This document shows, piece after piece, positions 13,195-13,913 of a stretch of DNA of 20,449 bases. The stretch lies in UHGV virus genome UHGV-0138820, one strand, 5' to 3'. Under the pieces are notes generated by a model. That model was given only the letters and a program-made list of their open reading frames with translations. It did no database searches and was not told the origin of the DNA. Within the stretch, counting starts at the first letter, position 1. Each line of letters starts with the position of its first letter. The stretch is from a virus. The translations under genes and the position numbers were made by a program.

Positions 13195-13464
13195 ATGAGT
13201 GATAAAAAACTTATAAAAAAATCAAATAACTGTGTAGATGCATATGCTGATGCATTTGGATATTCATCTTTTGGGGAAGATGACGATCGCTTAGGCTCCA
13301 TATCTTTCTTTCAGCATGTTACAGAATGGGGCGCTGATGGTAGTAATGACACTGAAAACGTAAAGTACAACATTGCAACAATTCGCATGACGGAAGATTT
13401 AATGCTTAAACTCGCTGACTTTATTCGCGATCAGCATGATAGAGCTAAAACCAATAAGTCATAA
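13195..13464 (+). CDS. Hypothetical acidic protein (89 aa), first gene of a rex-position cassette
   Basis: RBS GGGAAAGG 5 nt upstream of the ATG. AT-rich relative to flanking genes. No family recognised. Confidence 0.55.
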   Translation: MSDKKLIKKSNNCVDAYADAFGYSSFGEDDDRLGSISFFQHVTEWGADGSNDTENVKYNIATIRMTEDLMLKLADFIRDQHDRAKTNKS

Positions 13465-13472
13465 TATTAACA

Positions 13473-13913
13473 ATGAAACACGGTTATTACGAAGCTCCAA
13501 ACCTAACTGAAAAGCTTGAACAAGCGGCAAGATCATCATCTTTGCATACTGCAGCATTTTCTCAATCAGCTGGTATGTCTGGCGGTAATGTACCTATGCT
13601 ACAATCAAGTGGTAGCGGTGGCTCTGGGAGTAATAATGTGCTTGAATCGAAAGTTGCAAAGCTTGAGTCTGATGTGTCCTATATCCGACGTGACGTTGAT
13701 GAGCTTAAGACAGATGTCAAATCTATCGACAGAAACATGATCGCTGTTCTGGAGCGACTCGATTCAATAAAAGATTCACTAGCCAAAAAACCCTCCATCG
13801 ATGCTGTCGATAGAAAGGTTTCAGACGCAAAGCTTGCGGTATTGCTTGGTGTTCCAGCAATCATCGCTGCAGGAACAGGTCTTTATAAGCTATCAATGTA
13901 CTTTTTTCTTTAG
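13473..13913 (+). CDS. Hypothetical tail-anchored membrane protein (146 aa), second gene of the rex-position cassette
   Basis: Ser/Gly-rich linker, coiled-coil segment (LESKVAKLESDVSYIRRDVDELKTDVKSIDRNMIAVLERLDSIKDSL) and one C-terminal hydrophobic helix (LAVLLGVPAIIAAGTGLYKL). Starts 8 nt after the previous stop. AT-rich. Confidence 0.55.
   Translation: MKHGYYEAPNLTEKLEQAARSSSLHTAAFSQSAGMSGGNVPMLQSSGSGGSGSNNVLESKVAKLESDVSYIRRDVDELKTDVKSIDRNMIAVLERLDSIKDSLAKKPSIDAVDRKVSDAKLAVLLGVPAIIAAGTGLYKLSMYFFL

Follow-up and report, generated by a model that had tools for sequence, protein, structure and literature searches.

In phage lambda, two co-directional genes, rexA and rexB, directly follow the repressor gene cI and are closed off by a terminator before the leftward operator and promoter (OL/PL). 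The two genes are expressed in lysogens, and they specify one soluble and one membrane product. A two-gene cassette with the same layout, the subject of this report, lies at positions 13,195 to 13,913 of a 20,449-nucleotide (nt) stretch of viral DNA (UHGV virus genome UHGV-0138820; the whole stretch is called the window). Its first gene, open reading frame 89 (ORF89), encodes an 89-residue soluble protein, and its second, ORF146, a 146-residue protein with one transmembrane (TM) helix. Exclusion cassettes that occupy the rex slot and are expressed in lysogens are a known kind of element, and the sequence and setting of the pair plausibly point to an anti-phage role. An effector derived from the lysis protein XhlA, exchangeable partners that come with putative docking peptides to match, and an internal start conserved across the family appear to be undescribed in the resources used. 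The likeness to the Rex system is one of layout and logic. RexA and RexB are unrelated to ORF89 and ORF146, and no RexA or RexB match was obtained in Pfam or PADLOC. RexB is polytopic and channel-like, whereas ORF146 combines a single C-terminal TM helix with a long coiled coil, and RexA is far larger than ORF89.

Other described systems resemble the cassette in part. XhlA is a membrane protein that acts synergistically with the holin XhlB, and PBSX-dependent vesicle formation needs xhlA, xhlB and the endolysin gene xlyA, a result that agrees with previous work on lysis (PMC5589764). The 91-residue core of ORF146 is built like XhlA of Bacillus subtilis PBSX (PF10779): a coiled coil that opens with ME.RVAKLESDV leads into a C-terminal TM helix. 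Unlike XhlA, ORF146 has an added N-terminal extension and linker, is preceded by a soluble partner instead of being accompanied by a holin and endolysin, and belongs to an immunity operon rather than a lysis cassette; the holin, GH24 and Rz genes are situated elsewhere. The second system is SieA, the exclusion protein of phage P22, which blocks injection at the inner membrane (PMC10883804). SieA has the slot between mnt and gene 16 in common with a P22-like version of the pair, and a prophage-expressed membrane protein is involved in both cases, very likely so in that of the pair. Its sequence, however, is unrelated to that of ORF146, which is predicted to be mostly cytoplasmic, and SieA is encoded by one gene with its own promoter, unlike the two-gene pair. 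Finally, the lambda holin-antiholin pair S107/S105 and P22 sieB/esc are phage membrane genes with two in-frame starts. As is predicted for ORF146, one frame with two starts yields a full-length and an N-terminally shorter membrane protein, which may modulate each other. The predicted isoforms of ORF146 differ by 55 residues, comprising the putative partner-binding extension, compared with 2 in lambda S, and ORF146 has no homology to lambda S or SieB.

The slot behind the lysogeny repressor

Read along its + strand, this region runs in what would be the leftward direction in lambda, and both cassette genes are co-directional with the upstream cI-like gene. An earlier note, made from the letters of the window alone, had described two co-directional frames behind a CI-like repressor, separated by 8 nt, and its coordinates proved exact (Table 1). 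The strong terminator that it placed before a PL-like region is also present: its stem is followed by TTTTCTTTT, and its folding energy of -15.1 kcal/mol (z = -3.96) was equalled by 0 of 200 shuffles. The PL-like promoter beyond it is the top sigma-70-like site of the region (10/12) and is directed off the cassette, toward kil, gam, bet and exo in that order. In the 79-nt spacer between cI and ORF89, a scan of the region found neither promoter nor terminator signal. From these signals, the operon of the cI-like gene most likely drives the cassette. In several related lineages, moreover, there is overlap or direct contact between gene 1 and the gene for the repressor, which makes their co-expression very likely.

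A promoter inside the cassette ahead of ORF146, as a counterpart of lambda PLIT, was considered and rejected. The sole candidate (13436..13465, ATGATA-18-CATAAT) scores 9/12, and promoter-like sites are no commoner than in shuffles. This weak site lies at the 3' end of ORF89, a placement reminiscent of PLIT inside rexA.

The contents of the slot are exchangeable. Escherichia coli prophages with this cI 3' end and this terminator-PL-kil backbone hold several alternatives: an empty slot, an ORF89/ORF146-type pair in two variants about 75% identical, a 287-residue DUF7946/DUF7947 protein, a 313-residue match to PDC-S42, a defence candidate of PADLOC (E = 3e-86), or, in some prophages, a BamE-like lipoprotein alone. 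Among cultured phages with the same backbone, phage 4A7 carries PDC-M11A/B and PhiR70_1 three other hypothetical genes. The occurrence of the same cI and PL flanks with nothing or with different genes between them bears out the earlier note's proposal of horizontal acquisition, and the presence of PDC-S42 and PDC-M11 agrees with its description of the repressor-adjacent site as a hotspot. In other E. coli prophages as well as phage 4A7, these candidates take the cI-to-PL/kil slot that the pair occupies here, but their proteins are unrelated to ORF89 and ORF146. Against the empty allele, homology ends at the cI stop codon and restarts at the terminator hairpin; this puts the cargo at about 13117..13985 and makes the terminator a backbone element instead of a part of the cassette. 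A megablast search of phage records matched the terminator/PL backbone and not the cassette. By these sequence comparisons, the pair behaves as mobile cargo in a hotspot slot whose contents are polymorphic, and the cI-to-terminator slot could serve as a search rule for new cargo.

Some of the alternative contents merit description in their own right. The slot defence candidates are located at L124:883-1746, L125:826-1767 and L131:1052-2468, and the 287-residue protein is a distant DUF7946/DUF7947 relative. The BamE-like lipoprotein has 126 residues and is named BamD or BamE in RefSeq (L126:1046-1426, L127:982-1362 and L016:5474-5854). In Citrobacter, it is the third gene, after the partner and XhlA-like pair. 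It is possibly a moron of its own, with a role in surface exclusion or in the envelope.

The linkage to repressors extends across the family. About 110 loci with ORF146 relatives were collected and their reading frames called, and in nearly all of them the ORF146 relative comes second in a co-directional pair. In 101 of 113 loci, the next gene upstream also points the same way and is no more than 200 nt away. Among 54 non-redundant upstream neighbours, HTH_3 was found in 32, Peptidase_S24 in 25, Phage_CI_repr in 13 and Arc/Mnt in 5. In most loci, a repressor gene of the cI or Mnt type immediately precedes the related pair. One cassette occurs behind four different cI alleles in Citrobacter. 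In the P22-like Salmonella phage UPF_BP1, both homologues come directly after mnt (ORF89 76% and ORF146 45% identical) and take the stretch from mnt to gene 16 that in P22 contains orf59a and sieA. ORF89/ORF146-type homologues follow mnt in a Serratia prophage as well. The joint movement of the pair into a non-homologous slot in P22-like phages is what the earlier note's two-component module would predict.

The cassette is also set apart by its composition. Its GC content is 39.9% (ORF89 36.3%, ORF146 42.6%), compared with 46.9% for cI, 51.7% for kil-exo and 46.7% for the whole window, which confirms the AT-richness noted before and places it at the 2.7th percentile among equal-sized windows. 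Against diverged relatives, the ratio of non-synonymous to synonymous divergence (dN/dS) is 0.06-0.11 for ORF89, 0.11-0.13 for the ORF146 core and 0.15-0.68 for its N-terminal extension and linker, and by these ratios purifying selection is acting on both genes. The pair is present at a coverage of at least 80% in 198 of 5426 complete E. coli genomes (about 3.6%), and the exact ORF89 protein is found on at least 1000 contigs. The cassette is 100% identical to that of a lambdoid prophage adjoining icd in E. coli Rb-23. The annotation of that prophage lists the two genes as "hypothetical protein" and has a complete lysis set of holin, GH24 lysozyme and Rz genes at another site. The range of the family includes E. 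coli, Salmonella, Citrobacter, Klebsiella, Serratia, Erwinia, Pantoea and other genera. Kinship to ymfI/ymfJ of e14, a prophage that likewise integrates at icd, was considered and rejected: the layouts differ, and no homology was reported.

Two further arrangements were seen among the collected loci. Opposite-strand pairs between a K-like (NlpC/P60) gene and the I/J genes mark a second recurrent cargo site (L004:4516-5381, L009:4537-5354 and L068-L071). In Serratia P22-like prophages, an ORF89 homologue is followed by a 207-residue protein with a Ser-rich linker, a coiled coil and a TM helix (L014:5284-5907 and L015:3587-3994). This protein has no detectable sequence similarity to ORF146. Gene callers are split for it between a long start (207 residues) and an internal start (135 residues), and the next gene downstream encodes a 101-residue secreted protein.

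ORF146, its XhlA-like core and its partners

ORF89 is acidic and soluble, as the earlier note had described it (isoelectric point 4.98, no hydrophobic segment), and is predicted to fold into three long beta strands followed by a C-terminal helix. It has no Pfam or NCBIfam match and no match in a sequence search of the PDB. A profile of the ORF89 family retrieved only 10 relatives from 1.84 billion representative proteins, and a distant annotated family is therefore absent. For ORF146, Pfam and NCBIfam gave sub-threshold coiled-coil matches only, and the PDB search with its family returned generic trimeric coiled coils (fibritin, gp26 and Lpp) at E >= 0.004. A BFVD structure search produced no match at E <= 0.001. 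Beyond these, searches of Pfam, NCBIfam, PHROGs and PADLOC led to PHROGs of unknown function only: phrog_4231 for ORF89 and phrog_3556 for ORF146.

The architecture of ORF146 is as the earlier note had read it, with a Ser/Gly linker, a coiled coil and one C-terminal TM helix. The linker occupies residues ~31-55, and the heptad coiled coil that follows has hydrophobic residues at 14 of 15 a/d positions. The TM segment (KD19 = 1.8) is the one hydrophobic helix, and the remainder is coiled coil or linker. A structure model of low confidence places helices at residues 11-29, 55-105 and 110-145 and disorder at 30-54. The predicted topology is N-in and mostly cytoplasmic, with ~9 residues past the TM helix and no signal sequence. 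This topology bears on a different kind of exclusion, in which a membrane protein similar to SieA or HK97 gp15 would hinder the injection of incoming DNA without killing the cell. Such a block at entry would suit the position of the pair in P22-like phages, where it occupies the orf59a/sieA stretch after mnt. However, a protein that lacks a signal sequence and whose TM helix ends 9 residues from the C-terminus would offer little periplasmic surface to ejection proteins, the need for a variable soluble cytoplasmic partner would go unexplained, and Pfam and PHROGs-type family searches gave no SieA similarity. On balance, a block at entry is unlikely.

The sequence of the core relates ORF146 to a lysis protein. 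In the core that the family shares, M(L)E.RVAKLESDV..I(R/K).D comes first, a heptad coiled coil extends from it, and a single TM helix lies near the C-terminus. A Thermaerobacillus protein bearing this core motif scores 59 bits on PF10779, making it a bona fide Pfam XhlA, and its gene stands in the PBSX arrangement, Sipho_Gp37 - XhlA - Holin_SPP1 - Amidase_3. When the ORF146 family profile was aligned with this protein by hhalign, the match reached 95% probability (E = 4e-8, 68 columns), a score that coiled-coil similarity may have inflated. The likeness to XhlA that the earlier note had drawn from architecture thus has a counterpart in profile comparison. Judged by sequence, the ORF146 core is a remote XhlA homologue and not a family member by Pfam's rule; the wording "remote homologue" is chosen because ORF146 misses the Pfam threshold.

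Because XhlA homologues work with holins in lysis cassettes, the pair might instead serve the cycle of the phage itself, in lysis timing or in the lysis-lysogeny decision, as reported for lambda RexA. The predicted dual-start design of ORF146 is reminiscent of holin/antiholin pairs, and cI-operon genes in lambda are transcribed from PRE too during establishment. Nevertheless, the same backbone exists with an empty slot or with other cargo, which makes the cassette dispensable, and a complete holin-endolysin-Rz cassette is encoded elsewhere. The terminator, moreover, insulates the cassette from PL, and the cassette faces away from PR. A role of this kind is accordingly given little credence.

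The partners of the XhlA-like core are strikingly diverse. Gene 1 of the related pairs falls into 20 BLAST clusters that are mutually unrelated, whereas the core motif of gene 2 is conserved. These clusters include the ORF89 family, proteins of ~150 residues similar to phrog_5893, small CxxC..CxxC proteins, helical proteins and others, and no Pfam family was found in any of 45 gene-1 proteins scanned. The first ~30 residues of gene 2, with extension types assigned by inspection of the first 32 residues, track the gene-1 family and not the type of C-terminal anchor. ORF89-type partners all pair with the extension M(K/S)(H/Q).YYE.P.L...L..AA.S..LH, which is the same on anchors of the window type, the UPF_BP1 type and the "XhlA117" type. 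Similarly, the extension MVRAIDI.T.QPIE pairs with P153-type partners on two different anchors. Between the window and UPF_BP1, non-synonymous divergence (dN) is 0.14-0.15 for ORF89 and the N-terminal extension, compared with 0.74 for the core. The combination of a close extension and a diverged core therefore places a recombination joint in the linker. The N-terminal extension is a putative docking site for the gene-1 protein. Of the two roles that the earlier note had offered for ORF89, sensor or partner, that of partner is upheld by this co-variation, and sensing is one possible role only.

Partner diversity also bears on lysogenic conversion, in which the pair would alter host envelope physiology (stress tolerance, colonisation or vesiculation) in ways unrelated to phage competition. 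This alternative, which seems quite improbable, draws on the BamE-like lipoprotein in the same slot of some prophages and on the tie between XhlA-type proteins and membrane-vesicle release in Bacillus. Extreme diversification of partners against a conserved effector core is, however, typical of conflict systems.

The boundary between linker and core is marked by a conserved start codon, which, like the breadth of the family and the backbone origin of the terminator, had escaped the earlier note. All 60 non-redundant sequences scored have this codon (56 ATG, 3 GTG and 1 TTG), and the three non-Met lineages, including the window with GTG at 13638, all carry alternative start codons. GGAGG precedes the internal start by 4-10 nt in 46 of 59 sequences, with a modal spacing of 7 nt, compared with 17.1 +/- 3.2 (maximum 27) expected from 2000 trials of synonymous recoding with local codon usage; the sequences counted here are inter-related. 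The window itself has GGGAG-N7-GTG. At the long start, GGAGG was found in only 6 of 58 sequences, and in 53 of 58 this start lies between -26 and +15 nt from the gene-1 stop. In the window, the long start of ORF146 likewise lacks a Shine-Dalgarno sequence, and the short distance from the ORF89 stop suggests that the long form is probably translationally coupled to ORF89. Upstream of the internal start, a run of at least 25 codons without a stop occurs in the same frame in 59 of 62 sequences (32 and 2 for the other two frames); the N-terminal extension is therefore coding. Gene callers disagree on ORF146, with versions of 146, 105 and 91 residues annotated. We infer from this pattern that two products are made, a long form coupled to gene 1 and an independently initiated 91-residue XhlA-like core.

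The two forms are relevant to a reading of the pair as an addiction module of the toxin-antitoxin (TA) type, in which ORF146 would be a membrane toxin neutralised by ORF89 and the module would stabilise the prophage without a dedicated anti-phage role. Two small, tightly coupled genes, an XhlA-like membrane protein with an acidic partner matched to its N-terminus, and a mobile unit found in many contexts would all fit such a module. In contrast, the gene for the partner is the first of the two and would drive the translation of the long isoform only, which would leave the short isoform unprotected, and a location that exclusion genes or defence candidates use elsewhere fits defence at least equally well. 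An addiction role alone seems improbable on these grounds; many TA modules have defence roles anyway, and the TA and defence readings are not exclusive.

Features of the cassette and its surroundings

The features of the immunity region are collected in Table 1.

Table 1. Positions of the cassette, its parts and the adjoining regulatory features in the window.
Feature	Position	Strand	Remarks
cro-like gene	12085..12318	-	divergent from cI-like gene
cI-like repressor	12387 (TTG, longest ORF) or 12423 (ATG, RefSeq start)..13115	+	HTH_3 and Peptidase_S24
Variable cargo segment of immunity operon	13117..13985 (about)	+	from alignment with empty-slot allele
ORF89 (gene 1)	13195..13464	+	acidic, soluble; phrog_4231
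ORF146 (gene 2), long isoform, 146 residues	13473..13913	+	phrog_3556
N-terminal extension of ORF146, residues 1-30	13473..13562	+	predicted helix at residues 11-29
Ser/Gly-rich disordered linker, residues 31-55	13563..13637	+	contains internal Shine-Dalgarno-like GGGAG, 13626..13630
Predicted short isoform, 91 residues, XhlA-like core	13638..13913	+	GTG start at 13638, 7 nt past GGGAG
Coiled coil, ORF146 residues 56-106	13638..13790	+	
TM helix, ORF146 residues 119-137	13827..13883	+	
Intrinsic terminator of cI operon	13989..14022 (stem 13989..14012)	+	9-bp stem (6 G-C pairs), then T run
PL-like promoter, TTGATA-17-TATCAT	14160..14188	+	points from cassette toward kil-gam-bet-exo

Beyond the PL-like promoter, 14190..14465 contains no ORF for an N-like antiterminator before kil. 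The PL leader of ~280 nt is 95-97% conserved in the lambdoid phages PhiR70_1, 4A7, Lambda_4C10 and Perceval and contains no Rfam RNA; a search of the whole window likewise returned no Rfam family. One possibility is that early leftward antitermination in this phage group proceeds by an RNA-based, put-like mechanism, as in HK022. The kil gene itself can be read in two ways. A 128-residue ORF with a GTG start covers 14285..14671, with homology to kil (phrog_294) in its C-terminal 77 residues only, and RefSeq annotates a cell-division inhibitor of 68 residues at 14465..14671.

The GC minimum of the window lies elsewhere, at 36.4% in the 719-nt window from 9101 (9101..9820), with 33% for 9401..9800. 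In the matching Rb-23 prophage, this low-GC stretch is flanked by a 4.3-kb inverse-autotransporter gene and the replication gene P, and it is probably another cargo junction.

Proposed mechanism and significance

The reading preferred here is a lysogen-expressed exclusion module composed of a sensor or partner and a membrane effector, in which membrane damage or the premature triggering of a holin would abort infection. This reading is held tentatively, at a little short of an even chance. The cassette would be a mobile two-gene accessory "moron" in the cargo slot of the cI operon, and its lysogen transcript would be shared with the repressor and end at the backbone terminator. ORF146 would be a tail-anchored inner-membrane protein whose cytoplasmic coiled coil and TM helix derive from XhlA. 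In its long form, the extension would dock the ORF89 protein on a flexible Ser/Gly linker, and the short form of 91 residues would supply the XhlA-like core alone, translated from the internal Shine-Dalgarno sequence and GTG. ORF89 may then act as an exchangeable specificity or sensor subunit that the long isoform keeps at the membrane. A superinfecting phage would perturb ORF89, and XhlA-like cores would be freed or reorganised. These cores would either damage the inner membrane directly or fire the holin of the invader early, and the infection would be aborted. In its logic, the scheme is akin to lambda RexA/RexB, but unrelated proteins would carry it out.

Several observations weigh against this mechanism. 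ORF146 scores 11.5 bits (E = 0.35) on Pfam XhlA, below the gathering threshold of 34.7 bits, the short isoform alone gave no XhlA match at E <= 0.1, and the coiled-coil caveat given above applies to the profile scores. The monomer model of ORF146 (pLDDT 58) was too poor for a fold search. Neither protein matched a PADLOC-DB v2 model, the best scores (E = 0.006-0.05) falling on coiled-coil parts of AAA ATPases, and the alternative partner proteins gave no PADLOC match either. In the literature searched, the accessions and PHROG identifiers go unmentioned, and XhlA-like proteins are not tied to phage defence. The relatedness of the Shine-Dalgarno and start-codon sequences means that their counts overstate the number of independent events. 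Lastly, a minority of modules lie inside lambda-like tail clusters on the opposite strand, and in Salmonella phage 29485 the module is co-directional with the tail (late) genes; expression restricted to lysogens is therefore not universal in the family.

A broader proposal, which is more doubtful, is that the pairs represent a large and as yet undescribed class of prophage immunity modules. In this class, XhlA would have been repurposed as a universal tail-anchored effector with exchangeable docking peptides for at least 20 unrelated sensors, controlled through long and short isoforms, expressed from cI or mnt operons and directed at aborting competing phages.

If the pair is an exclusion or abortive-infection system, it would represent a widespread family overlooked by current defence-finding tools. 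Such a role would link the lysis-cassette protein XhlA to immunity and provide a compact model in which to study how an exchangeable docking peptide joins a sensor to an effector in the membrane. The same model would bear on how isoform ratios from one mRNA keep a membrane-active protein harmless before infection. More generally, it would put "downstream of the lysogeny repressor" to the test as a practical search rule for prophage defence genes.

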